IMG/VR virus record: IMGVR_UViG_2778261416_000003
Coordinates: 1-18,122 of that record
Strand: one strand, 5' to 3'
Source of the DNA: a virus
Lineage: Duplodnaviria; Heunggongvirae; Uroviricota; Caudoviricetes
Length of the DNA stretch: 18,122 nt
This document shows, in pieces, positions 1-17,190 of the stretch. Below the pieces are notes generated by a model. The model made no database searches. It was given only the letters and a program-made list of their open reading frames with translations, and was not told the origin of the DNA. Within the stretch, counting starts at the first letter, position 1. Each line of letters opens with the position of its first letter. Both the position numbers and the translations under genes were made by a program.

Positions 1-2091
1 ATGTATGTCATTGCAAAAGAACTGATTGGCGCGCCCGGAATGCCTGCTACAACAAAAGGTATTCGCCAGGCATTACAACGTTACGTACAAGGGAAAAGCT
101 GTTGTTCCCGTCGTCGCTCAGGCTCTAAAGCAACTGAATACAGCATCGACTGTTTACCTGAAGTGACGCAGCAGGCATTACGTGAACGCTACGCCCTGCA
201 ACTGATGACGCAAAAAGCCGATGAATCACCGGCTCCGGTGGTGACAAAGGCCAGACGCTTACCTGCCGTGGTTGATGCGGTGGAGGCATATCGCGGATCA
301 CCCCAACTGATGGTCGAACGCCTCAATGCCCTGACTGAAAACCAACGTAAAGTGGCAGAGGCACGAATAGCGATCGTCAGCGAGGTGCTGAAAATCGCGC
401 AACAACCCGGCTTTAGTTGCGCTAAGGCTATCCGGTTCCTCGTTAACAGCCTGGCACGATCACAACTGGACGAGCGCATTGTGGCAATGGTTGAGACGGC
501 GAACGCCAAAAAGGGAAACAGCCGCGCGTTGAGTGAAATCACGCTGAAACGCTGGATTGCGGCCTTTAACAAGGCACAGAACGCCGCTGAACGCCTGCTT
601 TTACTGGCACCGGGTAAACGCCAGGAAATAAAAGCCGAAGATATTAACTGGCTGCCCGAATTTCTGGCGCAGTATCGCCAGTCAAACGGCCGACCAATGA
701 CCGAGGCTTACGAGGATTTTGTTGCTGAATGGCAGCACCGGCACGCTGATGAGCCTTATATGCTCGATATCATGCCCTCTTATGACACCATTCGCCGCGC
801 AATGAAGAAACTGCCGGAAGTGGTGAAACAAAAAGGCCGGGTAACTGGCAGTGAATACCGTCAGCTTGAGGGATTCACGCGCCGCGACTGGTCCAGAATG
901 CCGGTGAATTATGTCTGGATTGGTGACGGTCACGGCATGAAGCTGAAATGCGCGCACCCGGTTCACGGGCGGCCATTCGCACCGGAAGTGACCTTTGTTA
1001 TCGACGGTGGCACGCGCTTTGTGGTGGGCTGGAGCCTTGACCTGGCTGAAAATGTTTTCGCCGTAGCCGGTGCCATACAGCACGGTATTCGCCATCATGG
1101 CAAACCGTTTCTGTATTACTCGGATAATGGCTCCGGGGAAACCGCCGACGTCCTGGATAAGGAGATTGTGGGGATACTGCCACGACTGGGGATTAATCAC
1201 CCGACAGGGATTGCCGGTAATCCGCAGGGACGGGGCATTATCGAACGGCTTAACCGCACATTACCGATGCGCATAGCCCGTAAATACCGCACCTATTTCG
1301 GGAAAGGAGCAGATCGCGAGACGTTACGTAAAACCAACCGCGATTTACGCTCGGCATTCAGTGCCCTGCAACAGGGCAAACGGCTGAACGCCCGGCAGCA
1401 GTCAGCGATGCGTGATTTACCGTCCTGGTCTGAACTGATTGATGCCATTCGTGACGGTGTTGAGTGGTACAACAACCGGCCGCACGATGAATTACCCATG
1501 AAGCCGAACGGTAAACATTACAGCCCGGCGGAGTTCAGAAAAAAACGCCTGGCGGAAGAGGACACGGAAATTGAATGGCTGTCCGATGTTGAACTGCGGG
1601 ATATGTTCCGGCCGATGGTGGAGCGCCCTGTAAGACGCTGTGAAATACGCTGGCTGAATAATATTTACTACGCGCCCGAGCTGCGTGACGAGCATGGCCG
1701 TAAGGTACTTATCAGCTATGACATTCATGATGCCGAACGAATTACCGTGCGCCGCCCGGATGGCAGCGTGATTTGCGAGGCGGTATGGGACGGCAATAAA
1801 CGCGAAGCCTTCCCTGTCAGCGCGGAATACTACAAACAGCAGCAGCGCCTTAAAGGCATGCGTAAACGCGCAGAGGAAAAAATCCGTGATGCCGAGGATG
1901 AGGTTGTCAACGTGCTGGAGCACAAGCCGCAGGAGCCCTGGCTGGAAAACATATACCGCCCTGTGGGTAATACGGTGACCGTTCAGCAACCGGTCGCTGA
2001 CGATGAACCTGATGAAGAATACGAGCGTAATTTCCAGCGGGGATTGCAACTGCTCGAAGCGAAATTAAAAGAAAGTGATCCGCTGGCCTGA
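1..2091 (+). CDS. A: Mu-type DDE transposase (MuA-like)
   Basis: 696-aa ORF; N-terminus (KELIGAPGMPATTKG...) parallels the Mu A end-binding domain; DDE-like motifs VWIGDGHG, YYSDNGSG and a downstream IIERLNR glutamate; followed directly by a MuB-like gene as in Mu. Confidence 0.9.
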   Translation: MYVIAKELIGAPGMPATTKGIRQALQRYVQGKSCCSRRRSGSKATEYSIDCLPEVTQQALRERYALQLMTQKADESPAPVVTKARRLPAVVDAVEAYRGSPQLMVERLNALTENQRKVAEARIAIVSEVLKIAQQPGFSCAKAIRFLVNSLARSQLDERIVAMVETANAKKGNSRALSEITLKRWIAAFNKAQNAAERLLLLAPGKRQEIKAEDINWLPEFLAQYRQSNGRPMTEAYEDFVAEWQHRHADEPYMLDIMPSYDTIRRAMKKLPEVVKQKGRVTGSEYRQLEGFTRRDWSRMPVNYVWIGDGHGMKLKCAHPVHGRPFAPEVTFVIDGGTRFVVGWSLDLAENVFAVAGAIQHGIRHHGKPFLYYSDNGSGETADVLDKEIVGILPRLGINHPTGIAGNPQGRGIIERLNRTLPMRIARKYRTYFGKGADRETLRKTNRDLRSAFSALQQGKRLNARQQSAMRDLPSWSELIDAIRDGVEWYNNRPHDELPMKPNGKHYSPAEFRKKRLAEEDTEIEWLSDVELRDMFRPMVERPVRRCEIRWLNNIYYAPELRDEHGRKVLISYDIHDAERITVRRPDGSVICEAVWDGNKREAFPVSAEYYKQQQRLKGMRKRAEEKIRDAEDEVVNVLEHKPQEPWLENIYRPVGNTVTVQQPVADDEPDEEYERNFQRGLQLLEAKLKESDPLA

Positions 2092-2173
2092 AATAAAAAA
2101 ATAACCCGAGGGGTGACTCAGGTTATTTGAGGTTTCAGTCTCGGAGAATGCTGTCTCAAGCGAGGTGAATAAT

Positions 2174-3106
2174 ATGACCGATATTAACGATGTAATCAAG
2201 ACCATTGATGAACTTATTGATGGCGGCGTACTGACGCAGTATGCCATCGCCAGAGAGGCGGGAATTTCCGACGGCACATTATCGGCTTTCCGTAAGGGAA
2301 AATATAAAGGCGATAACGCTGCTGTGGCTGCTTCCCTGCGCTCCTGGTATGAGAACTGGAATAAACAAAGCGCACTGCCGGAACCGCCGCAGTTTGTGGA
2401 AACTCAGACAGTCCAGGAGCTGCGCGCACTGTTTCAGGCGGTTCGCCTGATGGGCTGTATTAACGTTATTGTGGGCGTACCGGGTGTGGGTAAAACGGCC
2501 ACTGCCCGTAATTACTGCCAGGAGCAACCAAACACCTGGATGATCACCCTGTCACCCGCGCACTCCAGCGTCACGGAGTGTCTGCTGGAGCTGGCCGATG
2601 CGCTGGGGATTGATTACACCCGCGCGAACAAAGGGGCATTATCCCGCGCCATCCGCCGTCGCCTGATGGGAACGCGTGGACTGGTGATTGTGGATGAGGC
2701 GGATCATCTTGGTATTGACGGTCTGGAGCAACTCCGGGCAATTCAGGACGCCACGGGGATCGGGATGGTGCTTATTGGTAACCCGCGCGGATTGTTTAAA
2801 GGTGGACGCCGCGCCTTTGATGATTTATCGCGCCTGTTCAGCCGTCTTGCCCGTACAAAACAACTTCGCAAGGCCAAAAAGGCGGATGTGCTGGCCATTG
2901 CCATGGCGTGGGGGATCAGTGGTGAGGCCGAGCTGGCCGTCATGCAGGCTATCGCTGAAAAGCCGGGAGCGTTACGCGTTCTGACACATACGCTTAACCA
3001 GGCGTGGCTCACCGCCAGCGGTGAAGGCGCGGCGCTGACAGAAAAACATATTAATGCGGCCTTTAAAGAGGTTTATACCAACCCTGAATTACTCTCACAG
3101 GTGTGA
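2174..3106 (+). CDS. B: Mu B-like transposition target-DNA activator, AAA+ ATPase
   Basis: Walker A GVPGVGKT, Walker B LVIVDEADHL; colinear with Mu B (PEPPQFVETQTV, KPGALRVL); ATG 2174 preferred over the track GTG 2165 because GAGG lies about 8 nt upstream. Confidence 0.9.
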   Translation: MTDINDVIKTIDELIDGGVLTQYAIAREAGISDGTLSAFRKGKYKGDNAAVAASLRSWYENWNKQSALPEPPQFVETQTVQELRALFQAVRLMGCINVIVGVPGVGKTATARNYCQEQPNTWMITLSPAHSSVTECLLELADALGIDYTRANKGALSRAIRRRLMGTRGLVIVDEADHLGIDGLEQLRAIQDATGIGMVLIGNPRGLFKGGRRAFDDLSRLFSRLARTKQLRKAKKADVLAIAMAWGISGEAELAVMQAIAEKPGALRVLTHTLNQAWLTASGEGAALTEKHINAAFKEVYTNPELLSQV

Positions 3107-3108
3107 TT

Positions 3109-3330
3109 ATGGCGGTATTTAATATTCCTGATATTTACGGACGCTTTTACCTGGTTAATTTCGATAACGTGAAGGTGATTTCACTGGCCGAAAATAAAGA
3201 ATGTGGCGATTTACTTTTTGAATTTAATGACCGCACACGAATGGTGATATCTGCCGGACTTGATCGCGAAGGTGCGACAGAAGTTTACAGCGGAATATGC
3301 CGTTCTGTTGGTGCGAAACAAGTCAGCTAA
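3109..3330 (+). CDS. small early protein, 73 aa; position and size match Mu kil but sequence not recognised
   Basis: ORF starts 2 nt after the B stop; AGGTG upstream of ATG 3109; synteny with the Mu early region. Confidence 0.5.
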   Translation: MAVFNIPDIYGRFYLVNFDNVKVISLAENKECGDLLFEFNDRTRMVISAGLDREGATEVYSGICRSVGAKQVS

Positions 3331-3342
3331 ATGAGGTGTTAT

Positions 3343-3597
3343 ATGAATATGCAATCCTGCGGTAACAAAATGAATTTATTCGACTCCCTGAACAGCGCGC
3401 GCCGTCTGACCGAACTTGCCGGTGCGGTACTGGAACGCAGTAAGCGCTATCCGCAACGTTTTGCACTGAAAACCACGCCGCCGGTAGGCAACGTGCAGGG
3501 AACCGGTGAAATTGAAATCACCATACAGACCAACGGCCTGCGCCGCCGTGTGAAGGCCACCCGCATCAGCGGCTGCACGGTTTACTGGGAGGTGTGA
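3343..3597 (+). CDS. hypothetical early protein (~84 aa)
   Basis: ORF with GAGGTG 4 nt upstream of ATG 3343 (track start 3331 in the same frame). Confidence 0.5.
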   Translation: MNMQSCGNKMNLFDSLNSARRLTELAGAVLERSKRYPQRFALKTTPPVGNVQGTGEIEITIQTNGLRRRVKATRISGCTVYWEV

Positions 3598-3598
3598 G

Positions 3599-3880
3599 GT
3601 GAAAAAAAATCTCATTGCATGGGCGTGGTCGAGTGGTCTTATTGAGTTTGGTTACGTCCTGCCGGAAGGTGCATTGCCGATAGTTGCCGGAAAGCCTGCC
3701 ACGGTACGGCATGTGATTGAGGTTATGGCGCGTCATGGACGTGATGAACAGGAGCAGTTACTGGTTCCGGGGATACCGGAAGCGGTGACGGAGGAAGAAG
3801 CCTTTAATGCCATGATTCGGTTCTGCCGTGAGGTTAGACGCCGGGTCAGTTATCCAAACAGAACGAGGACCAGAGGATGA
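3599..3880 (+). CDS. hypothetical early protein (93 aa, GTG start)
   Basis: GGAGG about 8 nt upstream of GTG 3599; stop overlaps the next start (ATGA at 3877). Confidence 0.5.
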   Translation: MKKNLIAWAWSSGLIEFGYVLPEGALPIVAGKPATVRHVIEVMARHGRDEQEQLLVPGIPEAVTEEEAFNAMIRFCREVRRRVSYPNRTRTRG

Positions 3881-4149
3881 GTAAAGTCGTACGCATTATT
3901 TTCGAATACAAGGAAGATGTTATCTGCAAAAACTCTGATGGCAGCACGCACAGAGGGGTAAGTCTGGATATACGTTCAACCGGAATAAAGAAGAAAGATA
4001 ATGGACCCGCCATGATTTTTGGGGTGGTTATGCTGGCAGAAAGCAGAAACTTCGCAGAGTTTGTGGCAATGAAAGCCAGTGCATTCATGAAAGACAGAGG
4101 CATGGCTTCCGGGGTTATTAACGGTAATGAATTTAATCAACAGGGGTAA
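3877..4149 (+). CDS. hypothetical early protein, member 1 of a tandem paralogue pair
   Basis: AGAGGA RBS then ATG 3877; N-terminus MSKVVRIIFEY resembles the next gene. Confidence 0.55.
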   Translation: MSKVVRIIFEYKEDVICKNSDGSTHRGVSLDIRSTGIKKKDNGPAMIFGVVMLAESRNFAEFVAMKASAFMKDRGMASGVINGNEFNQQG

Positions 4150-4153
4150 TTCC

Positions 4154-4447
4154 ATGAGCAAAGTACGCGTTATTTTTGAATTTAATCATGTTTCGCATGA
4201 CGAAAAGTTGGCAGGCAATGACTGTGTTGAAGTGCATGAAAAGATTGGAGTGGATGTGAAAACAGAACGTGATACGGATAACAGGCCGACGTCACTCTGT
4301 GACGTTTATGCAAGTATTCTCCAGTATCACAGTCCTGCAATTATTCAGTTTCTCTCAGCGGAATTTCAGGCATCTGCACAGTCTTTTGGAGCGGATGCCA
4401 TCATTAAACGCCACCGCGTGCATAAAGCATCAGGCACACTGCAATAA
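4154..4447 (+). CDS. hypothetical early protein, member 2 of a tandem paralogue pair
   Basis: AGGGG then ATG 4154 (internal Met of track ORF 4127..4447); N-terminus MSKVRVIFEF. Confidence 0.55.
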   Translation: MSKVRVIFEFNHVSHDEKLAGNDCVEVHEKIGVDVKTERDTDNRPTSLCDVYASILQYHSPAIIQFLSAEFQASAQSFGADAIIKRHRVHKASGTLQ

Positions 4448-4458
4448 GGAAAAACAAA

Positions 4459-4989
4459 ATGGCTAAACGCGTTACAAAATTAAAGGCCGCAGCCGAGGCG
4501 GCACCGCAGACCCGGGAAGAAGTCAGCCGTGATATCCGCACCCTGGGAGATATTCAGCGAGAGGCGCTGCGCCTGGAAACGGCGATGAATGACGAAGTGG
4601 CAGAAATCACCGCCCGTTATACGCCGCAGATTGAAAATCTTAAAAAGCAAATCAAAGTGCTTTTTAAAGGGATTCAGGACTGGTGCAAAACCAACCGTGA
4701 TGAGCTGACGAACGGCGGCAAAACCAAAACAGCCAATCTGACCACCGGAACGGTGTCATGGCGGCTGGGAACGCCATCATGCAGCGTCAGCCGTGATGTG
4801 GAAGGTGTGATTGAAATGCTGCGCCGTATGGGGCTTGAGCGTTTCATCCGCACGAAAGAGGAAGTGAACAAGGAAGCCGTCCTGGCGGAGCCGGATGCTG
4901 TGAAAGGCATTGCCGGTATCAAGGTGAATAAAGGCGCTGAAAGTTTTTATGTCGAGCCTTTTGAACAGGACGCCGGACTGAATAAATAA
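4459..4989 (+). CDS. gam: Mu Gam-like host-nuclease inhibitor (Ku-like dsDNA end-binding protein)
   Basis: 176 aa; colinear with Mu Gam (MAK...LKAAAEA, GDIQREALRLETAMNDEVAEIT, ANRDELTNGGKTKTANL, ERFIRTKEEVNKEA, EPFEQ); AAGGA RBS. Confidence 0.9.
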   Translation: MAKRVTKLKAAAEAAPQTREEVSRDIRTLGDIQREALRLETAMNDEVAEITARYTPQIENLKKQIKVLFKGIQDWCKTNRDELTNGGKTKTANLTTGTVSWRLGTPSCSVSRDVEGVIEMLRRMGLERFIRTKEEVNKEAVLAEPDAVKGIAGIKVNKGAESFYVEPFEQDAGLNK

Positions 4990-5134
4990 CACCACATTAA
5001 TCAATTAAATATCACTTCATTTTAATTATGGCGCTCGCGTCAGGGGACTGCTTGCGCCTGAAAACAGAAAATAAGGGTTAAGAAATATGAAATACGTTTA
5101 TATCGTCATTAATAATGTGGTGGGGAAATAAATC

Positions 5135-5668
5135 ATGATTGATGCAAAAGTGCTTGAAGGGGTTAAAAACTGGCTGTGTATTTATGGCCGCCTGACCTGC
5201 GGTGTACTGGCTGAAAAAATGAATATGCCGCCATCCTCCATGGTTTATTTTCTGCGTGATGCGGTTGATGCAGGCGTGCTGACGGAATGTAACGGTTTTT
5301 ATGATATTCCGCGCCCCCGCCCGGTGCAGCCGGTTCGTCGCAAATGCAGCCAGGAATCTGCGGCTGATGATGTTCAGTGGTGCGGCTTCAGAAAATCCCT
5401 GCCATGGATTGAGGGGCATGATATTCCGTCGATGGCGTGGGAATTTGCTCAGGGCGTTCTGACCTGTGAAACCGTTTATGTGGTGGCTGAAGTTGATGAG
5501 CAGGCCATGAAAGAAGGCGTGCCCCAGTTTGTGATGGCGTATATCGACATACGCCTGGGCGTCATTATCTGCGGTTTAAGCGGCTGGAATATCACTGAAC
5601 ATGTTCTGCGCTACCTGATTGTTGACCGGACAGCAGCGCCTGCCGGGATATCTGCGGAGGTGGCGTAA
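5135..5668 (+). CDS. hypothetical early protein with a possible N-terminal winged-helix DNA-binding region
   Basis: 177-aa ORF after a 145-bp AT-rich gap; GGGGA RBS; N-terminal pattern GRLTCGVLAEKMNMPPSSMVYFLRDAVDAGVL looks HTH-like. Confidence 0.55.
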   Translation: MIDAKVLEGVKNWLCIYGRLTCGVLAEKMNMPPSSMVYFLRDAVDAGVLTECNGFYDIPRPRPVQPVRRKCSQESAADDVQWCGFRKSLPWIEGHDIPSMAWEFAQGVLTCETVYVVAEVDEQAMKEGVPQFVMAYIDIRLGVIICGLSGWNITEHVLRYLIVDRTAAPAGISAEVA

Positions 5669-6183
5669 TGTTCTTTAAAACATCAAACCCTTCCGCGCTG
5701 GCTGCGTGGCAAAAATACCAGCAGGACTGCCAGAAAGTTAAGGATGAGGCAAAACGCCTTGAGGCCGTGCTGAATGTTGCGTGCCGGTCGGTATTTGTAT
5801 CCGGTATCAGTGGATTTTACTTTAAGGGACTGCGTTTTACGGAGGACAAATATCCTTTTCATCGCGACTTATGGCGAAAACCGACTGCGTCGAATGGCTG
5901 GAGCTGCACACCGCGCACATCACGTATCCCTAAAACCCTGCGTGTTGCCTCTGATGAACTGAACAGTCTGTGGCGTGAATATTCGCCCGTCACGTATGCC
6001 AGAACCGATGCGCTGTTGTTCTGGTTGGGTATTGATTTCTCGGCAATCCTGTTTGGCCCTGTGAAGTGGTTCTGCGTTGACGATGTGATTTACCTTCAGT
6101 GCGGCGTAAAACCCGCAAAACAGAAAATGACCGAAATACTGTCTGATGAGTTTTATGCTGCTGAAAAGCGAGTCAGGGGGTGA
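5668..6183 (+). CDS. hypothetical early protein (171 aa)
   Basis: GGAGGTGG RBS; start overlaps the upstream stop (TAATG). Confidence 0.55.
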   Translation: MFFKTSNPSALAAWQKYQQDCQKVKDEAKRLEAVLNVACRSVFVSGISGFYFKGLRFTEDKYPFHRDLWRKPTASNGWSCTPRTSRIPKTLRVASDELNSLWREYSPVTYARTDALLFWLGIDFSAILFGPVKWFCVDDVIYLQCGVKPAKQKMTEILSDEFYAAEKRVRG

Positions 6184-6186
6184 TGC

Positions 6187-6738
6187 ATGATGAAATTACA
6201 ACCCATGGGACTAAAAGGTCGCGCCCCCGCTCATGTCCGTCCGTGGACACCTGAAGAAGATGCGCTGCTGATTGCGCTTTATTCATCCACCCCGGTTAAG
6301 GATATTGCTGCCAGAATAAAAAGAACTGTCTGGGCTGTATATAACCGGACTGGTGTATTGCGCAGTTCATACCCGGAGTTACTGAAATATAAACACCCAA
6401 GATTTACACCTGATGAAGATAAGTTTATTCGAAAAAATGCCAGAACAATGACCTGCCAGCAAATGGGAGAATATCTCGGACGTAATAAAGATTCTGTCAG
6501 ATGTCGGGCAGGAATGATTGGTGCTGGATTAACAAAGTGCGGAGAGTTACGCCCCGGCACGCACATATCTGATGATGATGTACGTCTTATACGTGCGCTG
6601 CGTGATTCCGATTACCCACGCCGTCTGTCATTCCGGGAAATTGGCGAAAAGTTTGGAATATCTGAACATTCTGCTCACGCAGTTTATTACCGTCGCCGGA
6701 CTGCCGAGGACGCTGTATTACGGGAGTTAACGCCATGA
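6187..6738 (+). CDS. hypothetical early protein with three tandem HTH-like repeats
   Basis: 183 aa; repeated module W/F-T-P-E/D-E-D ... I-A/G-x-x-I/L-x-R-T/N/S (WTPEEDALLIALY..., FTPDEDKFIRKN..., ISDDDVRLIRAL...SFREIGEKFGIS); AGGGGG RBS. Confidence 0.6.
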   Translation: MMKLQPMGLKGRAPAHVRPWTPEEDALLIALYSSTPVKDIAARIKRTVWAVYNRTGVLRSSYPELLKYKHPRFTPDEDKFIRKNARTMTCQQMGEYLGRNKDSVRCRAGMIGAGLTKCGELRPGTHISDDDVRLIRALRDSDYPRRLSFREIGEKFGISEHSAHAVYYRRRTAEDAVLRELTP

Positions 6739-7064
6739 TAACGACCTTATTTGTTGAATCAGATGAACCTCTTGTGTGTGCCGCCGGAATGCCGCTCTGT
6801 GGCGGAACGCTGACCGGTGTTTATTTCGGGGATTTACGCGGTTATCCCTGGCATTCACTGAATGATGCTTTCCCACCTGATATGGAGGCTGCCGTGCTGA
6901 TTGTTCAGTATGGTCACCGTCAGGAGCTGCGCATCGGCCATATGGGGTATGAAGGCTTTTTTGTTGATGAAGAAACCGGAGCCTGCCTTGAAGATGAAGA
7001 CGGACAGGTGACGCACTGGTGTCATATTTCGGCTTTACCGGAATTACGGGAGGTGAATGCGTGA
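6735..7064 (+). CDS. hypothetical early protein (109 aa)
   Basis: ATGA overlap with the upstream stop; GGGAG RBS. Confidence 0.5.
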   Translation: MITTLFVESDEPLVCAAGMPLCGGTLTGVYFGDLRGYPWHSLNDAFPPDMEAAVLIVQYGHRQELRIGHMGYEGFFVDEETGACLEDEDGQVTHWCHISALPELREVNA

Positions 7065-7411
7065 GAAGTTATATTGATAATGAAAAGCTGGAGACAATAA
7101 GCGACTGTCTTAGCTTGCTGGCAAAAATCAAAGAAACTATTGAAGAGATTAAATTTCAGCTTGAATACGCACCATGTGGCGATGATGCATGGCGTAATGC
7201 TGCCAGAAAAGCACTGGCTGTCTTTCAGAAACAACGCCGGGCTGTTGAATACCGCCTTGCTGTATTGCGCCAGGAGGAAAAGGAAAGAAATATAAGACGT
7301 CATGAACGCGTTAATGATTTCCTTGTTCGTGAATTAAAAGAGCGCGTGCCGGAGTCGGTGTTTTTTGAATGTGAGGCTATAGCCCGTAGCAAAGCACTGG
7401 AAACAGATTAA
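7061..7411 (+). CDS. hypothetical early protein (~116 aa, GTG start), probably coiled-coil
   Basis: GGAGG upstream of GTG 7061, which overlaps the upstream stop (GTGA); charged heptad-like sequence. Confidence 0.5.
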   Translation: MRSYIDNEKLETISDCLSLLAKIKETIEEIKFQLEYAPCGDDAWRNAARKALAVFQKQRRAVEYRLAVLRQEEKERNIRRHERVNDFLVRELKERVPESVFFECEAIARSKALETD

Positions 7412-7426
7412 GCAGGCAGGTGAATA

Positions 7427-7735
7427 ATGAGTATTGAATTAAGATCGTCTTATGAATATCGCAAAATCCTTATCGCCGGAGGCATGAAACCGGAAGATGC
7501 AGAGAAATTCGTTTCTTTTATGGATAAAGAATGTGACAAGCGGGATATGCCAGAAATTATTATGGATGACATGATTCTGGATTCAGCCGTGGCGTTAAGT
7601 CCGTTATGGATTGTGCATACTCTTGCGGAAATAGCTAAAAGAAGTGACAAGCAGGCGGCTGTCGCCGCCCTGCGATTACTGGCTGAATTAAGTTGTTCAG
7701 TCAATCCCAATACGTTCTTTGACGAACCTGGTTAA
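7427..7735 (+). CDS. hypothetical early protein (102 aa)
   Basis: AGGTGA RBS then ATG 7427. Confidence 0.5.
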   Translation: MSIELRSSYEYRKILIAGGMKPEDAEKFVSFMDKECDKRDMPEIIMDDMILDSAVALSPLWIVHTLAEIAKRSDKQAAVAALRLLAELSCSVNPNTFFDEPG

Positions 7736-8107
7736 CATTGATTTGGTAACTTCTTTAATTAGATCAAATGGTGCGTCTGTAAACTCCTTTTTGATTCTTT
7801 CAAGGATTGGTTTTTTTCTCAGGGCGTTAGCTAAATCATGCCCCTGCTGGGTAAGCATAATGGGCGTGTTTCTGAAACCAACGCCCAGAGAATGGAAAAA
7901 GAAACCAATATATTTGGGTGTTTCTGACTGCATATCACCATTAACAATTGAGCCATTATCAGCGAGAAGCATAAGATGAAAAACTTTTTTATCCTTTTCC
8001 TCTCCTTCTGCCTCAGCCATGCCCAGATCCTGTAGTGTAAGGAAAGGTGTTTCAGCATCCTGAAAAGTTGTGAGAATACTTAATACTTCATCGTAATCTA
8101 TTTTCAT
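7697..8107 (-). CDS. hypothetical protein (136 aa), antisense moron at the early/late junction
   Basis: Only sizeable minus-strand ORF inside the + strand early operon; visibly AT-richer than flanks; AAAGG RBS upstream of ATG 8107 on the minus strand; 3' end overlaps the 7427..7735 gene convergently by ~39 bp. Confidence 0.5.
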   Translation of the reverse strand: MKIDYDEVLSILTTFQDAETPFLTLQDLGMAEAEGEEKDKKVFHLMLLADNGSIVNGDMQSETPKYIGFFFHSLGVGFRNTPIMLTQQGHDLANALRKKPILERIKKEFTDAPFDLIKEVTKSMLTRFVKERIGID

Positions 8108-8171
8108 ATCGATACCTTTAGTTTTATCCGGGCGGCGTTGCCATGCCGCCTGTTGTTACGGAGACACGATA

Positions 8172-8592
8172 ATGAATCGCGCTTCCCTGATTACCTTAAT
8201 ACATGTCGCAAAACGCGATCTACAGCTTGACCATGAGACCTACACATCCGTACTACTGGCAGCCACCGGCAAACCCAGTTGCCCGTTCAGAACGGTTTTC
8301 TGCCACCGTGCGTGGCTGGTTCCGGGATGATGGCCGGTTATGGGATGTCAATCTGCTGACCGGTGTTTCAGCCCTGCGTTTCGGTATAGAACAGACTGAA
8401 CTGCTGGTCTGTCAGGTGGAGTTTTTACTTGATGAACATAACGGGGAAGTCACCCGGCTGGTACTGGCACCGCGTGACGGCTTTATCGTTCCGGCAGAGC
8501 CGGACAGTAAGGGCCGGGGTGGTTCCGGTGACGATGTTGATGCCTTTATTCGCCAGCAGATGAAAAAACAGGGGATCAGCTTTGATGAATGA
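8172..8592 (+). pseudogene. GemA (Mu gp16)-like gene that changes frame, or a deletion-fusion remnant
   Basis: GGAGA RBS then ATG 8172; frame-0 ORF MNRASLITLIHVAKRDLQLDHETYTSVLLAATGKPSC... resembles the DUF1018/GemA N-terminus from memory but stops at 8330; the only long ORF continues in the +1 frame (8203..8592), has no RBS, and ends overlapping the gp45-like start. Confidence 0.35.
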
Positions 8593-9196
8593 TGAAGTGT
8601 TCAGCCGCCTGATTGCCCCGGTAACGCGCGGTATTCGCCTGTTGTTTGGCCGGGGCGTTCTGACCGGCACACATGACGAACTGAAAATGCAGAATGTGCA
8701 GCTCACCGGCATGGACGGCGAAACCTTTGATGATGTGGAGCGTCCCCAGCAGTACGGGCAGATCAGCGTTCCCCTGCCGGGTGCGGAAACCTTTTTTGCC
8801 TGTCTGGGCGGACAGCGGGATCAGACTGTGGTGCTTGTGGTGGAAGACCGGCGCAGCCGCCCGACCGGACTCACAGCCGGAGATACGGGGGTGTATCACC
8901 ATGAGGGGCACCGGATACGGTTAACAAAGGATGGTCGCATTATTGTGACATGCAAAATGCTGGAGATTTACGCCGATGAGGGGATGCGGGTGGATACGCC
9001 GGAGGCCACCTTTACGGGCAATGTGACGGTGGATAAAAACCTGCATGTTAAGGGTAATTTCGTGCTTGATGGTACAGGTAAATCAGACGGGCTGTTCACG
9101 ATGTCTGATGCCGTTATTGCCGGGATCACCTATTCCGGCCATGTGCATCAGGATAACGGCAAAGGCAGTAAGACAGGAGCGCCGGAGAATGGCTGA
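8585..9196 (+). CDS. baseplate assembly protein V-like (Mu gp45 family)
   Basis: ~203 aa; position directly upstream of gp46/47/48 homologues; gpV-like N-terminal region; ATG 8585 overlaps the upstream stop. Confidence 0.8.
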   Translation: MNDEVFSRLIAPVTRGIRLLFGRGVLTGTHDELKMQNVQLTGMDGETFDDVERPQQYGQISVPLPGAETFFACLGGQRDQTVVLVVEDRRSRPTGLTAGDTGVYHHEGHRIRLTKDGRIIVTCKMLEIYADEGMRVDTPEATFTGNVTVDKNLHVKGNFVLDGTGKSDGLFTMSDAVIAGITYSGHVHQDNGKGSKTGAPENG

Positions 9197-9626
9197 TATT
9201 GCAATTGTATGGGATCAGGGGTGCGGTTCGCTGCAACTGAACGGTGCCGACCTGCTGACGGATGACAGTCTGCTGACGGCCGTTCTGATTTCGCTGTTTA
9301 CTGACCGCCGGGCGCTGGCATCGGATGAAATCCCTGACGGTACGCGTGACCGCCGGGGATGGTGGGGAGACAGTTTTCGCCCGCGTCCCATTGGCTCCCG
9401 TCTGTGGCTTCTCCGCCGGGAAAAAACGCTGGCCTCGGTGATAAGCCGTGCCCGTGCTTACGCGGATGAGGCGCTGGGCTGGCTCAGTCAGGATGGCGTG
9501 GCGTCATCCGTGGTCTGTCATGCAGAACGTGTGGGACACGCGCGGCTGGCGCTTTCGGTGCGCATAACCCTGCCTGATGGTTCAGTGAGGCCCATGATTT
9601 TTTATGCTGATCTTAAGGGGGAGTAA
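9189..9626 (+). CDS. Mu gp46-like baseplate protein
   Basis: ~145 aa from ATG 9189 (internal Met of track ORF 9045..9626, overlapping the gp45 stop); GWWGD motif; synteny. Confidence 0.8.
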   Translation: MADIAIVWDQGCGSLQLNGADLLTDDSLLTAVLISLFTDRRALASDEIPDGTRDRRGWWGDSFRPRPIGSRLWLLRREKTLASVISRARAYADEALGWLSQDGVASSVVCHAERVGHARLALSVRITLPDGSVRPMIFYADLKGE

Positions 9627-11259: not shown

Positions 11260-12140
11260 TGTTTCATGTTGATAATAATTCCGGCGTGGCGAATATGCCT
11301 GCGCTGGCACCGGCGCAGAGTAATACCACCACCTGGTTTACCGAAGGTGACGGACAAAAAGGTATCAGCTGGATTGGTCAGGACTGGCTGAATATTCTCC
11401 AGGCCGAACTGCTGAATATTCTGGCTGAAGCCAGTATTCAGCCGGATAAGGCGCAGTTAAACCAGCTTACGCTGTCCATTAAAGCCATTATCGCTGCGAA
11501 TGCCTTTTCCCGGAAAAATAACCTGAAAGAAATTGCTGATGCCGGTGCGGAGGCCCAGCGTCTGGCCCGTGGTTATCTTGGTCTGGGGACGCTTGCCACA
11601 AAAAACAGTCTTGGTCCCGCTGACATTAATGCCCTGGCGAAGGATCAGAATCTCGCCGACCTGGAGAATAAGGGAACCGCCCGTAATAATCTGGATGTTT
11701 ACAGCAAAAGCGAAGGTGATAACCGTTACCTGCGCAGGGAGCAGAACGGCGCAGACATTCCGGATAAAGGGGCTTTTATCGATAACGTCGGTTTACGGGA
11801 AACGGTAAACAGGGCGGCGAATGCCCTGCCATCGGACGGCACCGCCGTTGCCGCGAACAGGCTGGCAAATGCCCACACAATTAATGGTGTTCCCTTTGAC
11901 GGGACGCAGGATATCACTATCTCATCAGGAACAGTAACCGCCATAAGACTGGGGTCGGTGACCGCACATATGCCCGGAACATGGGAAAGCTGGGATCTGA
12001 ATCTGGGGGGCGGCAATGTTCTTACCGGAATTAAAGTACAGGATGTCGGTAAGAATACGGCAGATAACGTCGGCGGCGTGTATTACCGGCCGTTGCAGTA
12101 TCTGTTAAATGGAGCATGGGTGACGGCTGCAAGTATATAA
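11259..12140 (+). CDS. tail fibre protein, constant N-terminal part plus variable C-terminal part (current orientation)
   Basis: 293 aa; tail-fibre-like N-terminus; C-terminal [18 protein letters not shown] resembles the P2 H C-terminus; a gix-like site lies inside the gene at 11776..11801. Confidence 0.85.
11776..11801. repeat. gix-like recombination site, left (inside the tail-fibre gene)
   Basis: TTATCGATAACGTCGGTTTACGGGAA, about 22/26 identical to the reverse complement of the Mu gix sequence as remembered; the inverted repeat begins at its centre. Confidence 0.7.
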
Positions 12141-12149
12141 TGATATTCA

Positions 12150-12173
12150 GAAGGCCTTCCGGCCTTCTTTATT
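12150..12173. terminator. intrinsic terminator hairpin between the convergent fibre and assembly genes
   Basis: GAAGGCC-TTCC-GGCCTTC (7-bp stem, 4-nt loop) followed by TTTATT on the + strand. Confidence 0.6.
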
Positions 12174-12693
12174 ACTGTGGCTGCTCAGGCCATTTAATGG
12201 CGTTAAATTCAGCTTCTGTTTTAATGGCGGGTAGTTCCATTTTCTTCACCTGACTGATGTATGCCATCCATTGGGTAAGTGCTGCTCTGTCTTCATCGCT
12301 GATGGTGCCCAGTTGTAGCTCCGTTCTCCAGTCATTAATTTTTTCATATGCCTGATTAAGATATGACTGGCGCATTGCTTCCAGTTTTCTTGCGTAGTTA
12401 ACCGGAATACGGGAGATTATGCCATTATCAAACTTCCAGTTTCCTGAAATATCCGTGCCTTCAGGGAGTTCATCGACCTCAACCACAGAAAACCCCGCAG
12501 GATACAGCGCCGAGGCGTCCTGTGATATTGAGCAGATAACGCCGCTGTCAGGTGTTATGCAAAGTTTATATTTTTTGGTGAATAATGGCAGGGATTCGTA
12601 GAAATCCTTACCATCTTCACTCTGGAAATACTGAACATTATTACCATATGGCATATTTTCAGGATAATAACGGGTTATATTTTTTAGTTCCAT
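12172..12693 (-). CDS. tail fibre assembly protein (Tfa / Mu U' / P2 G family)
   Basis: 173 aa; SEDGKDFYE...DASALYPAGFSVVEVDELP and C-terminal WPEQPQ match Tfa-family proteins such as e14 TfaE as remembered. Confidence 0.85.
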   Translation of the reverse strand: MELKNITRYYPENMPYGNNVQYFQSEDGKDFYESLPLFTKKYKLCITPDSGVICSISQDASALYPAGFSVVEVDELPEGTDISGNWKFDNGIISRIPVNYARKLEAMRQSYLNQAYEKINDWRTELQLGTISDEDRAALTQWMAYISQVKKMELPAIKTEAEFNAIKWPEQPQ

Positions 12694-12744
12694 AAAATCC
12701 TCCTGGAAATAAATCTGTTTTAAAATATATTATTTACTGACTAT

Positions 12745-13107
12745 TTATAACTGAGATACCGTAATCCATGTACCTCCGACTAATTTTTGCAGGGGTCTGA
12801 ATGCTATAAAATCGTTTGAAGCATCAACTTTACTGTCAATCTGCAGGCCTGCCATAACATTACCGTACGCAGAGTAATATGCCCCACCGTACATTACCTG
12901 CCTGTTCTCTGCTCCCAGCCTGATATCCTGGATATATCGGGAATCCGCATCCTGCTGTGTTATACCAGAAGTGATGTTTATGTCCTGCGTCCCGTCAAAG
13001 GGAACCCCATTAATATTTCTTGGGGTGGCGAGTCTATTCGCGGCAACGGCGGTGCCGTCCGATGGCAGAGCATTCGCCGCCCTGTTTACCGTTTCCCGTA
13101 AACCGAG
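12745..13107 (-). CDS. alternative tail-fibre C-terminal cassette (S'v-like); start-less, expressed only after inversion
   Basis: Minus-strand frame from the gixR centre to stop at 12745 reads [24 protein letters not shown]...FRPLQKLVGGTWITVSQL, sharing the first ~23 aa and the C-terminal pattern with the + strand fibre; followed on the minus strand by the Tfa gene. Confidence 0.75.
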   Translation of the reverse strand, partial: LGLRETVNRAANALPSDGTAVAANRLATPRNINGVPFDGTQDINITSGITQQDADSRYIQDIRLGAENRQVMYGGAYYSAYGNVMAGLQIDSKVDASNDFIAFRPLQKLVGGTWITVSQL

Positions 13108-13118
13108 GTTTTCAGGAA
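13093..13118. repeat. gix-like recombination site, right
   Basis: TTCCCGTAAACCGAGGTTTTCAGGAA, about 22/26 identical to the Mu gix sequence TTCCTGTAAACCGAGGTTTTGGATAA as remembered. Confidence 0.75.
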
Positions 13119-13183: not shown

Positions 13184-13756
13184 ATGCTGATTGGGTATAT
13201 CAGGGTGTCAACAAATGACCAGAATACGGCGCTACAAAGAAATGCGCTGGAATGTGCAGGATGTGAGCTGTTTTTCGAAGACAGAATAAGCGGTAAGACA
13301 AGGGAGCGTCCCGGACTTAAACGCGCATTAAAGCGACTCCGGCCAGGGGATACCCTGCTGGTCTGGAAACTGGATCGCCTTGGACGCAGTATGCAGCACC
13401 TTGTCCTTTTAACAGAAGAACTCCGGCAACGCGGCGTTAACTTCCGCAGCATTACGGACAATATTGATACATCCACTCCCATGGGACGTTTCTTTTTCCA
13501 TATAATGGGCGCGCTGGCGGAAATGGAGCGGGAACTCATTATTGAACGTACACGCGCGGGTCTTGCTGCTGCCCGTGCTCAGGGGCGTCATGGCGGCAGA
13601 CCTCAGAAACTGACAGAGAAAGAGCGGGAGCAAATCGCCCGTTTGCTGGCTAATGGCGAGTCCCGTAAACAAATCGCACTGATATTTGATATTGGCCTTT
13701 CCACCCTTTATCGTTATTTTCCTGCCTCACCAGCTCCGTCACCAAAAGTACCGTGA
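13184..13756 (+). CDS. gin: serine DNA invertase (Gin/Pin/Hin family)
   Basis: 190 aa; MLIGYIRVSTNDQN catalytic-serine N-terminus, WKLDRLGRSM, GRFFFHIMGALAEMERELIIERT, C-terminal HTH; near-colinear with Pin/Gin; AAGGA RBS. Confidence 0.95.
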   Translation: MLIGYIRVSTNDQNTALQRNALECAGCELFFEDRISGKTRERPGLKRALKRLRPGDTLLVWKLDRLGRSMQHLVLLTEELRQRGVNFRSITDNIDTSTPMGRFFFHIMGALAEMERELIIERTRAGLAAARAQGRHGGRPQKLTEKEREQIARLLANGESRKQIALIFDIGLSTLYRYFPASPAPSPKVP

Positions 13757-13841: not shown

Positions 13842-15896
13842 ATGTCAGACTCCAAGTGGAAAATGCTCTCCGCCATGCCCGGAGAGTTTTCAGTCAAGGT
13901 TGCCGGTGGCACGGTGGCATTTATTGAAAGCCCTTTCCGCCCTTCGGGTAATAAAGGGGGGATCACCTTCGCAGACTGCGTGATCCGCTTCAGCACGAAA
14001 GAGCCATTATGGGTAATGCCGGTATCCGGTAATCCCAGTGCAGAAATCACCAGTTCAGGCGTGACTGGCATCATTCCAATCACATCTGACGTGGCCGGAA
14101 CGCTCACGCCCTCCGACTGGAATGCACCGGATAACGCCGGGCCTTCCGGTAGCACGAATGGCAGCAGTTCAAAGCCGGAATATTACTTTGTTGTCATTCT
14201 CGCGGGTCAGTCAAATGGCATGGCCTACGGCGAGGGGCTGCCGTTACCGGATTCGTTTGACCGCCCGGACCCACGCATTAAGCAACTGGCACGCCGCAGT
14301 ACGGTAACGCCCAACGGTACGTCGTGTACATACAACGACATCATTCCGGCAGACCACTGCCTGCATGATGTTCAGGATATGAGCGGGATAAACCACCCGA
14401 AAGCTGATCTGGCAAAAGGCCAGTACGGGACTGTCGGTCAGGGGTTGCATATTGCCAAAAAACTGCTTCCCTATATCCCACAGAATGCCGGGATACTTCT
14501 GGTGCCCTGTTGTCGTGGCGGGTCAGCATTCACCACTGGAGCCGACGGCTCATTCAGTGAGGCCAGCGGTGCTTCCGCTGATTCTTCACGCTGGGGGGCC
14601 GGTAAACCTCTGTATCAGGACCTGGTAAGCCGCACCAAAGTCGCGCTGGCGAAAAACCCGAAAAACAAACTTCTGGCTGTGGTCTGGATGCAGGGAGAGG
14701 CAGACCTTGCCTCAGGAAGCCAGCAGCATAATAGTTTATTCACGGCCATGGTTCAGCAGTTCAGAACTGACCTGGCTCCGCTTGCTGCGCAGTGCGTGAG
14801 TGGAAATGCCACCACGGTGCCGTGGATTTGCGGTGATACCACGTATTACTGGAAAAACGCTGGCACCGATAAATATGAGGCAGTATACGGTGGCTACAAA
14901 GGCAAGGAAGCACAGAAAATTTTCTTTGTACCGTTCCTGACGGATGAGAATGGACAGAGCACGCCAACGAATGCTCCGGCGGAAGACCCGGATATTGTGG
15001 CTGTCGGGTATTACGGTGCAGCATCCCGAACCCAGGGCAGTTTTGTTTCGACACAGCGTGACAGCCATTTCAGCTCATGGGCACGCAGGGGCGTCATTTC
15101 AGACCGTCTGGCCTCAGCTATTATGCTCCATGCAGGGCGCACGGCTGAACTGATGCGCGGGCAGACCGTGACACCACCGGATGAGAAGCCGTCACCTGAT
15201 ACACCATCAAAACCGTCCACGCCACCCGCAGACACCACGACGATGAGTACGCTATTTGCTTACCGGGCATCTGAGTCTGAAGGACGGTTGACACCACAGG
15301 GTTGGGCTGCCGGAGGTGGCAAGGCTCAAATCGTGGATGATGCCGGAGCCAGCGGGGGTAAGGCAATGAAACTGACCAAGGAAACAGGAAGAGCCCCCTG
15401 GTACCTTGAGCATGATGCTGGTAATGGTGCGGACCTGCTGGGTAAAGGTGGTCTTGTCAGTTGTCGTTTTAAACTCGATGGCGCGCTTACGGCTAATCAG
15501 TACGCACTGGCGCTGTACTGGCCGGTTTCTGCCCTGCCGCAAGGGGTTACTCTGGAAGGAAATGCCGGTCATAACCTGCTGGCATCGTTCTACGTACAGA
15601 GCGATGCCACAGACCTTAACGTGATGTATCACAAAGGAAACACGGCGCAGAACACGAAGCTGGGGTCATTCGGCGCATTTAATAACGAATGGCATACGCT
15701 GGGCTTCCGTTTTGCCGGTAACAACAGTATTGAGGTGACACCGGTCATTGATGGTAAGGACGGGACACCATTCATGCTGTCGCAGTCTCCGGTCGGCACG
15801 TTTACGGCAGACAAGTTGCGCGTGACCGATATCACTAAAAATGCGACTTACCCGGTACTGATTGACAGTATCGTGGTGGAAGTGAATAACGCGTAA
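13842..15896 (+). CDS. prophage-type sialate O-acetylesterase (NanS-p-like; SGNH/SASA esterase core, Pro/Ser/Thr linker, C-terminal lectin-like domain)
   Basis: 684 aa; esterase-core motif ILAGQSNGMAYGEGLPLPD, then VPCCRGGSAF and WMQGEADL; PPDEKPSPDTPSKPSTPPADTTT linker; location after tail-fibre genes as for NanS-p in Stx prophages; start codon uncertain. Confidence 0.75.
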   Translation: MSDSKWKMLSAMPGEFSVKVAGGTVAFIESPFRPSGNKGGITFADCVIRFSTKEPLWVMPVSGNPSAEITSSGVTGIIPITSDVAGTLTPSDWNAPDNAGPSGSTNGSSSKPEYYFVVILAGQSNGMAYGEGLPLPDSFDRPDPRIKQLARRSTVTPNGTSCTYNDIIPADHCLHDVQDMSGINHPKADLAKGQYGTVGQGLHIAKKLLPYIPQNAGILLVPCCRGGSAFTTGADGSFSEASGASADSSRWGAGKPLYQDLVSRTKVALAKNPKNKLLAVVWMQGEADLASGSQQHNSLFTAMVQQFRTDLAPLAAQCVSGNATTVPWICGDTTYYWKNAGTDKYEAVYGGYKGKEAQKIFFVPFLTDENGQSTPTNAPAEDPDIVAVGYYGAASRTQGSFVSTQRDSHFSSWARRGVISDRLASAIMLHAGRTAELMRGQTVTPPDEKPSPDTPSKPSTPPADTTTMSTLFAYRASESEGRLTPQGWAAGGGKAQIVDDAGASGGKAMKLTKETGRAPWYLEHDAGNGADLLGKGGLVSCRFKLDGALTANQYALALYWPVSALPQGVTLEGNAGHNLLASFYVQSDATDLNVMYHKGNTAQNTKLGSFGAFNNEWHTLGFRFAGNNSIEVTPVIDGKDGTPFMLSQSPVGTFTADKLRVTDITKNATYPVLIDSIVVEVNNA

Positions 15897-16513: not shown

Positions 16514-16680
16514 CAATACAAACCGGTGGTGTCCTCTGCCGGTTTGACACTAATGAAAACATCTTTGCCGCTATCCAGCCATATGTAATCGCTGGATAGT
16601 ATTTCGTATTCAGAAATATAGCTGCTTATGGAGCAGTCAATCCTGCTTCCCCATCCGGGCAGGCAAATGAACCGGTATCA

Positions 16681-16974
16681 TTAGTCCGATTCACGCTTTT
16701 GTAGAATCGTTCCCAGAATGCTATACAGCTCATTAGCCTGTTGCTCCATCATTGAGACGGAGGCTATACGGTGCAAAGTGATTTCAGGAGGTGGCACACC
16801 TCCATCTTCTTGCTGTGGAGGAAAAACATAAGATTTAATAAAAAAGTTGAAGCATATGAACTCTCCCGCACTCGAACTGTATTTGCAGGCATCTGAATAA
16901 TCGGAAAAATAATCATTATAGATTTCCGCATTTTCAATCATTTTTCGATTTCTCGTCGTTACATGATTGTCCAT
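16681..16974 (-). CDS. hypothetical protein (97 aa), divergent from com-mom
   Basis: AAGAGG RBS 5 nt upstream of ATG 16974 on the minus strand; AT-rich; downstream hairpin CTATCCAGC ... GCTGGATAG at 16567..16598. Confidence 0.45.
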   Translation of the reverse strand: MDNHVTTRNRKMIENAEIYNDYFSDYSDACKYSSSAGEFICFNFFIKSYVFPPQQEDGGVPPPEITLHRIASVSMMEQQANELYSILGTILQKRESD

Positions 16975-17097
16975 AGCAGCCTCTTACGCTGGCAATTAAC
17001 CAATTGACTTCTATAAATTAGTTGATTTGTTTGCTTTGCGGTATTCAAATGTACAATCATTCAGCACTTATGCGTTACAGCACCGTTTAAAATTAGT

Positions 17098-17190
17098 GAT
17101 CAAACTCATAAATTTTCGCTAATGACATTTCGTGTTATTTGTTGTATCAATTAAATAAATCAAATCGATCGTTTTTGTCGATCGATTGAG
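17098..17190 (+). promoter_or_regulatory. com-mom upstream regulatory region with three GATC (Dam) sites and a palindrome
   Basis: GATC at 17098..17101, 17167..17170 and 17180..17183; palindrome AATCGATCG-N7-CGATCGATT (17163..17187); Mu mom is known to be controlled by Dam methylation of three upstream GATC sites. Confidence 0.4.

Follow-up and report, generated by a model that had tools for sequence, protein, structure and literature searches.

The 18,122-nt stretch of viral DNA analysed in this study (the window) belongs to a Mu-like prophage of the Sp18 family in Escherichia coli, and comparison with intact relatives indicates that positions 8279-8283 very probably mark (probability about 0.93) the joint of a 19,555-bp internal deletion, at which the 5' end of gemA passes into the 3' end of gene P. 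The features around this joint are listed below.

7697 to 8107, minus strand: DUF2513-like gene, the last intact gene 5' of the gemA remnant
8131 to 8150, plus strand: GC-rich hairpin GGCGGC-N8-GCCGCC (GGCGGC at 8131-8136, GCCGCC at 8145-8150), followed by TGTTGTTA
8161 to 8164, plus strand: Shine-Dalgarno-like GGAG, 7 nt 5' of the gemA ATG at 8172, read from the sequence
8172 to 8283, plus strand: 5' remnant of gemA (gp16 family), codons 1-37 of 170
8172 to 8330, plus strand: chimeric 52-codon ORF, GemA residues 1-37 and 15 out-of-frame gene P residues, then TGA
8203 to 8592, plus strand: chimeric 129-codon ORF, about 25 out-of-frame gemA residues and the 103-aa C-terminus of P
8279 to 8283, no strand: deletion joint with the 5-bp microhomology TTGCC, placed by three-way alignment and megablast boundaries
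8279 to 8592, plus strand: 3' remnant of gene P, codons 272-374 and stop, 100 % identical to positions 47836-48149 of the JE86-ST02 locus (L002) and to FORC_069
8582 to 9196, plus strand: baseplate spike gene V (Mu gp45 family, PF06890), the first intact gene 3' of the joint, its start overlapping the stop of the P remnant

The two sides of the joint were each found in intact prophages. Megablast of positions 1-8290 returned intact Mu-like prophages matching 1-8283, the best being that of E. coli JE86-ST02 (99.7 %). Among 5,426 complete E. coli genomes searched in the same way, ten matched 8279-9300 at 100 %, in a segment annotated as 'phage baseplate assembly protein', 'baseplate assembly protein V' and 'GP46', and none covered the whole of 7600-9300. 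Direct blastn placed window positions 1-8283 at 20001-28285 of the JE86-ST02 locus (99.65 %) and 8279-8728 at 47836-48285 (100 %). Both arms lie inside one intact JE86-ST02 prophage, with offsets of 20002 and 39557 that differ by 19,555 bp, the intact parent being represented in this comparison by relatives of 99-100 % identity rather than by a direct ancestor.

In the three-way alignment the window tracks gemA through ...CCCAGTTGCC and then gene P from TTGCCCGTTCAG..., and the pentamer TTGCC, present at both parental sites, is retained as a single copy at 8279-8283. Flanks collinear with one intact reference, a repeat kept once and a joint free of filler bases are together the pattern of a microhomology-mediated deletion. 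Among joints simulated from breakpoint pairs drawn at random within the intact prophage, 0.7 % had 5 bp or more of microhomology, and a repeat search around the joint returned only chance-level matches of 10-14 nt. The gemA and P reading frames are out of register at the joint, and the change of frame coincides to the base with the switch of homology from one gene to the other. A preliminary description of this DNA had proposed here the scar of an event that removed the late genes, which was correct. Its statement that the frame changes exactly at the early/late junction holds as a consequence of the deletion, but there is no pre-existing boundary at this point, the breakpoints falling within two genes of the intact phage at a distance of 19.5 kb from each other.

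The window is identical to part of contig NOSF01000001.1 of assembly GCA_002521955.1 (positions 1799-19920 of the extracted locus, L003), in which the prophage is inserted in preA with flanking sequence 100 % identical to E. coli preA. Comparison with the uninterrupted gene revealed a 5-bp target duplication, TATAT, at both ends, and in the JE86-ST02 copy TTCGT is duplicated in citF; 5-bp duplications were thus observed at two different sites, with one left-end base ambiguous. The element measures 19,470 bp (L003 579-20048) compared with approximately 38-39 kb in intact relatives, one of which lies at NZ_AP022811.1 700972-739208. The matching duplications and the contiguous halves of preA place the deletion inside a single element.

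The same comparison of the preA and citF insertions showed that the element ends, taken with a 5-bp duplication, would have the form GTAACC...GCGCTATA in place of the canonical Mu TG...CA (L003 574-579 and 20045-20053; L002 18776-18782; L007 1968-1980). In each insertion the T that precedes GTAACC is ambiguous, and the alternative is a TG start with a duplication of only 4 bp.

Recombination between two Mu-like prophage copies in one genome, or modular exchange, might be considered in place of a deletion within one element, as some relatives carry several prophage copies (at up to eight places per genome) and the full-length best matches of the left and right arms are found in different strains. 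An event between copies would, however, separate or rearrange the flanks, whereas both ends of this element border a single uninterrupted preA target with a matching duplication, and near the joint both arms match the one JE86-ST02 prophage at 99.65 % and 100 %. Such an exchange is accordingly regarded as very improbable.

The joint might also have been created during assembly, by a chimeric contig collapsing two parts of an intact prophage. It is found in no complete RefSeq E. coli genome, and a 30-mer spanning it has zero matches in metagenome and species-representative genome collections. Against this, the 521-bp joint region with its 129-aa ORF is identical in the Logan assemblies of raw runs SRR3971774 and SRR32141831, so that three assemblies from different pipelines, one of them of a run from a different accession series, contain the same joint; the SRR3971774 assembly also has the insertion at this preA site, with identity over 13.6 kb. 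The 5-bp repeat is far below any assembler k-mer, and the joint lies in a 350 kb contig with coherent preA flanks and a target-site duplication. The chance of an artefact is therefore very small, and the joint is real on the basis of three assemblies rather than raw reads. These assemblies are clonal (identical in sequence, two with a common insertion site) and support the reality of the joint, not a wide spread. Neither an intact prophage nor any other prophage was found at the preA site in the 5,426 complete E. coli genomes, which together with the lack of the joint 30-mer in the collections indicates that the deletion is private to one lineage. As no intact prophage was found at that site, the deletion may have occurred in situ or before transposition into preA.

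Compared with intact relatives, the element has lost gemA from codon 38, the Mor-family activator, lysozyme, the spanins, a TraR/DksA-like gene, the terminase-region genes, the portal (DUF935), head morphogenesis genes, protease, the major head protein, head-tail connectors, sheath, tube, a tail assembly protein, the tape measure, DNA circularization protein N and 271 codons of P. It has kept transposase A, B, the Kil-like, Gam and gp11/gp12-like genes, other early genes and the DUF2513 gene on the left, and V (gp45), gp46, gp47, gp48, the tail fibre gene with its assembly protein, a Gin-like recombinase, the SASA/DUF6645 gene, DUF1378, DUF826 and com/mom on the right, together with both prophage ends; c-like and ner-like genes are located immediately beyond the window. 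All kept genes are equal in length to their counterparts in intact relatives, so that the deletion is the only obvious lesion, and the absence of others suggests that it was a recent event. The RefSeq/PGAP annotation of intact relatives also includes a 'tRNA-OTHER' between the head and virion morphogenesis genes (L001 8798-8877, minus strand), within the deleted part, where ARAGORN detected no tRNA.

The missing 19,555 bp begin at gemA codon 38, end at P codon 271 and comprise the lysis and morphogenesis modules. With mor, lysis, head, sheath, tube, tape measure, N and most of P gone, the element is predicted to be no longer able to form particles or lyse the cell. In intact relatives mor lies directly after gemA and is the only annotated activator of the Mor/C family. 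The remaining late genes are without it and, by analogy with Mu, in which a late promoter lies upstream of P, probably also without a late promoter of their own; transcription might reach them only as read-through of the early operon. The prophage should consequently be classed as defective, lacking the Mor activator, lysis, head, sheath, tube, tape measure and hub. It is a case of ordinary prophage decay, a defective deletion derivative of a well-known kind that raises no new biological question, but one that is clean and resolved to the base, in which a 5-bp microhomology in a transposable phage has taken out the virion genes and left potentially lethal transposition functions intact.

The parentage of the two remnants was established from the intact genes. 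The left-hand gene of the intact relative encodes a 170-aa protein (RefSeq 'gp16 family protein') that matches PF06252 (GemA) at E 2.8e-28, and the remnant is identical to it at 37 of 37 residues. The profile begins at residue 19 of the intact protein, leaving about 19 domain residues in the remnant. Full-length GemA proteins have around 170 aa and are encoded just 5' of mor; here only 37 codons are kept and mor is absent from the window. The intact right-hand gene, P, encodes 374 aa with four gp44/GpP domain families (PF21683, PF22255, PF22630-like and PF21929), and an intact P relative matches the crystal structure of Mu gp44 (PDB 1WRU) over residues 1-364 at E 1.2e-110. The P remnant corresponds to residues 272-374, all 103 of which are identical to the parent.

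Both ORFs that cross the joint are chimeric. The first runs from the ATG at 8172 to a TGA at 8328-8330 and its product is MNRASLITLIHVAKRDLQLDHETYTSVLLAATGKPSCPFRTVFCHRAWLVPG; the second runs from the ATG at 8203 to a TGA at 8590-8592, its end overlapping the gp45/V start (TTG 8582 or ATG 8585), and is annotated as a gene of 129 aa by gene finders. The ribosome-binding site, the ATG at 8172, the 52-codon frame with its stop at 8330 and the second frame that stays open to 8592 and overlaps the start of baseplate V had all been recognised in the preliminary description, and each was recovered. An exact look-up of the 52-aa product returned no record and Pfam gave zero matches to it at E<=1, the fragment being too short. 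The resemblance to GemA is therefore not demonstrable from this fragment alone and was settled by comparison with the intact relative: the GemA-like character proposed for its first 35 or so residues is real, as shown by the 37-residue identity with the N-terminus of the PF06252-matching protein. The 52-aa product is nevertheless a remnant of a GemA member and not itself a member.

In the profile search of both frames, the 129-aa product matched PF21929 (GpP_4th) only, over profile positions 14-85 of 87, and not GemA. This match falls in the P-derived part of the product, and the four-domain organization of Mu gp44 is not present. On inspection of the upstream sequence, no Shine-Dalgarno motif precedes the ATG at 8203. 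Both ORFs appear to be by-products of the deletion, neither being a gene in its own right, and would be non-functional. The annotated 129-aa 'GpP_4th' gene (8203-8592) and the 52-codon GemA-like ORF should be marked as pseudogene fragments.

It could be argued that the fusion is functional or selected, either because a shortened GemA peptide or an isolated C-terminal domain of gp44 is expressed and has its own role, or because the element is a natural mini-Mu that persists through continued transposition and packaging by a helper. The intact A, B, ends and repressor region would be in keeping with such a role, as would the retained gemA ribosome-binding site and start and the open state of all kept ORFs. 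A recent event would, however, account equally well for the intactness of the rest, and the two parts of the fusion do not share a frame. The 129-aa ORF starts within gemA sequence read out of frame, with no Shine-Dalgarno motif ahead of it, its GpP_4th domain is missing profile positions 1-13, and the joint occurs at one insertion site in one clonal lineage only. A functional fusion is thus judged most unlikely. A gemA gene frameshifted by a small insertion or deletion, with its remainder in the +1 frame, as the preliminary description had offered alternatively, agrees with the change of frame inside a GemA-like ORF but has practically no chance of being correct, given that in the alignment homology passes to gene P at the joint with zero gemA similarity 3' of 8283 and 100 % identity to the P 3' end, and that the +1-frame product matches GpP_4th and not GemA, this '+1 frame' being the one in which the final 103 codons of a Mu gp44/P homologue are read.

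For the 19,555-bp deletion, the mechanism most likely to apply would be RecA-independent illegitimate recombination, joining gemA codon 37 to P codon 271/272 across the direct repeat TTGCC and leaving one copy of it. This may have taken place by replication slippage between the two TTGCC copies or by microhomology-mediated end joining of a double-strand break, the sequence being compatible with either. Since gemA and P were joined out of frame, translation from the gemA start would enter P for 15 wrong-frame codons and stop at 8330, and the true P frame would stay open to its normal stop at 8592, overlapping the start of gene V.

Three other contributions to the event were considered. Deletion by the transposase is unlikely from what is generally known of intramolecular transposition in Mu, neither breakpoint lying at a Mu end. 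Gin-mediated deletion is also unlikely, the breakpoints being unlike the inverted repeats of the invertible segment as judged by eye only. A palindrome, CCGTTCAGAACGG (8283-8295), abuts the right breakpoint and might have aided slippage, but it is too weak for this, being no more stable than shuffled sequences (z = -0.3).

The preliminary description had also tied the GC-rich hairpin upstream of gemA to the scar. Its coordinates and the T-rich run that follows were confirmed; the link to the scar was not supported, because the hairpin and the whole intergenic region between DUF2513 and gemA are identical in the intact JE86-ST02 prophage, and the hairpin must therefore predate the deletion and be unrelated to it. 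The fold extends to 8129-8152 and as RNA has a predicted energy of -17.6 kcal/mol (z = -2.2), with 6 of 200 shuffled sequences equally stable. It is located between the divergent genes DUF2513 (minus strand) and gemA (plus strand), with a U-rich run 3' of it on the plus strand only, and it is absent from the FORC_069 relative, which is without the DUF2513 cassette. The terminator scan of 7400-9300 did not report it and it matched no Rfam family. The hairpin is native intergenic sequence and may attenuate early-operon read-through before gemA.

Promoter and terminator scans of 7400-9300 gave counts at or under the shuffle expectation. The sole terminator-like match in this region, at 8283-8295 (CCGTTCAGAACGG followed by TTTTCTGCC), belongs to native gene P sequence and has z = -0.3, and zero Rfam families were found in 7300-8900.

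Positions 7672-8171, which include the DUF2513 gene and the adjoining hairpin, look like a variable, moron-like cassette. The O157 Sp18-type relatives match the window up to 7671 only, and FORC_069 is without the DUF2513 cassette. The DUF2513 gene overlaps by 39 nt the 3' end of a plus-strand ORF at 7427-7735. This ORF of 102 aa is intact in the window, and the JE86-ST02 prophage, although otherwise intact, has a counterpart with an annotated frameshift.

The assignment to the Mu-like Sp18 family is based on Pfam families along the locus and on the annotations of relatives of 99-100 % identity, by which a MuA-type transposase, a MuB ATPase, Gam, Mom and gp45-gp48 are found in Mu order. Sp18 of E. 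coli O157:H7 Sakai and its relatives, such as Φ804-3 of FRIK804, are intact Mu-like prophages of approximately 38.8-39.2 kb (PMC2669165, PMC7430833). Elements of this family insert at varied sites by transposition (PMC7430833) and contain an invertible host-range segment, and Sp18 has been predicted to be intact (PMC2669165). The present copy shares their gene order and family but is reduced to 19,470 bp, without the part between gemA codon 38 and P codon 271, and would give no particles. The FRIK804 copy (Φ804-3) matches window positions 1-7671 at 94.6 %; JE86-ST02 and FORC_069 are closer, at 99-100 %. Similarly, the genes from which the fusion was formed are in the same families as Mu gemA (gp16; PF06252) and Mu gene P (gp44; 1WRU), whereas the fusion keeps 37 of 170 GemA codons and 103 of 374 gp44 codons, out of frame, and neither part is a functional member.

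Microhomology-mediated deletions, which are illegitimate and RecA-independent, are known to generate defective prophages, and mini-Mu elements are known as laboratory derivatives. The present deletion resembles the former in that a repeat found at both parental sites is kept once, with no inserted bases and a large internal loss. It resembles laboratory mini-Mu in having kept A, B and both ends while losing the morphogenesis genes. Engineered mini-Mu elements are normally without distal baseplate, tail-fibre, invertase and com/mom genes; by contrast, this element has a natural origin and has kept all of these, and its competence for transposition is only putative. With c, ner, A, B, the ends and the target-site duplication intact, it could conceivably be a natural mini-Mu that may transpose on derepression, could use a co-resident intact Sp18-type phage for its packaging and reached preA already deleted, although this combination is considered improbable.

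Several other features were observed in the right-hand part of the window. Inverted repeats at 11781-11929 and 12965-13113 comprise stretches of 86 nt (93 % complementary) and 50 nt (84 %), and the 1.0-1.2 kb or so between them contains the tail-fibre assembly gene and a partial tail-fibre gene. The Gin-like serine recombinase gene (13184-13756) adjoins these repeats; no recombinase gene is present there in the JE86-ST02 relative. By its sequence arrangement the 11781-13113 segment is a putative G-segment-like invertible host-range switch.

Between the invertase and com/mom, a gene of 684 aa (13842-15896) encodes SASA (sialate O-acetylesterase-like) and DUF6645 domains and may have an accessory role in modification of a receptor or the surface. 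Positions 16546-17135, including a minus-strand ORF at 16681-16974, have no homology to the FORC_069 prophage, which is otherwise 95-99 % identical, and this segment is a replaced module upstream of com/mom.
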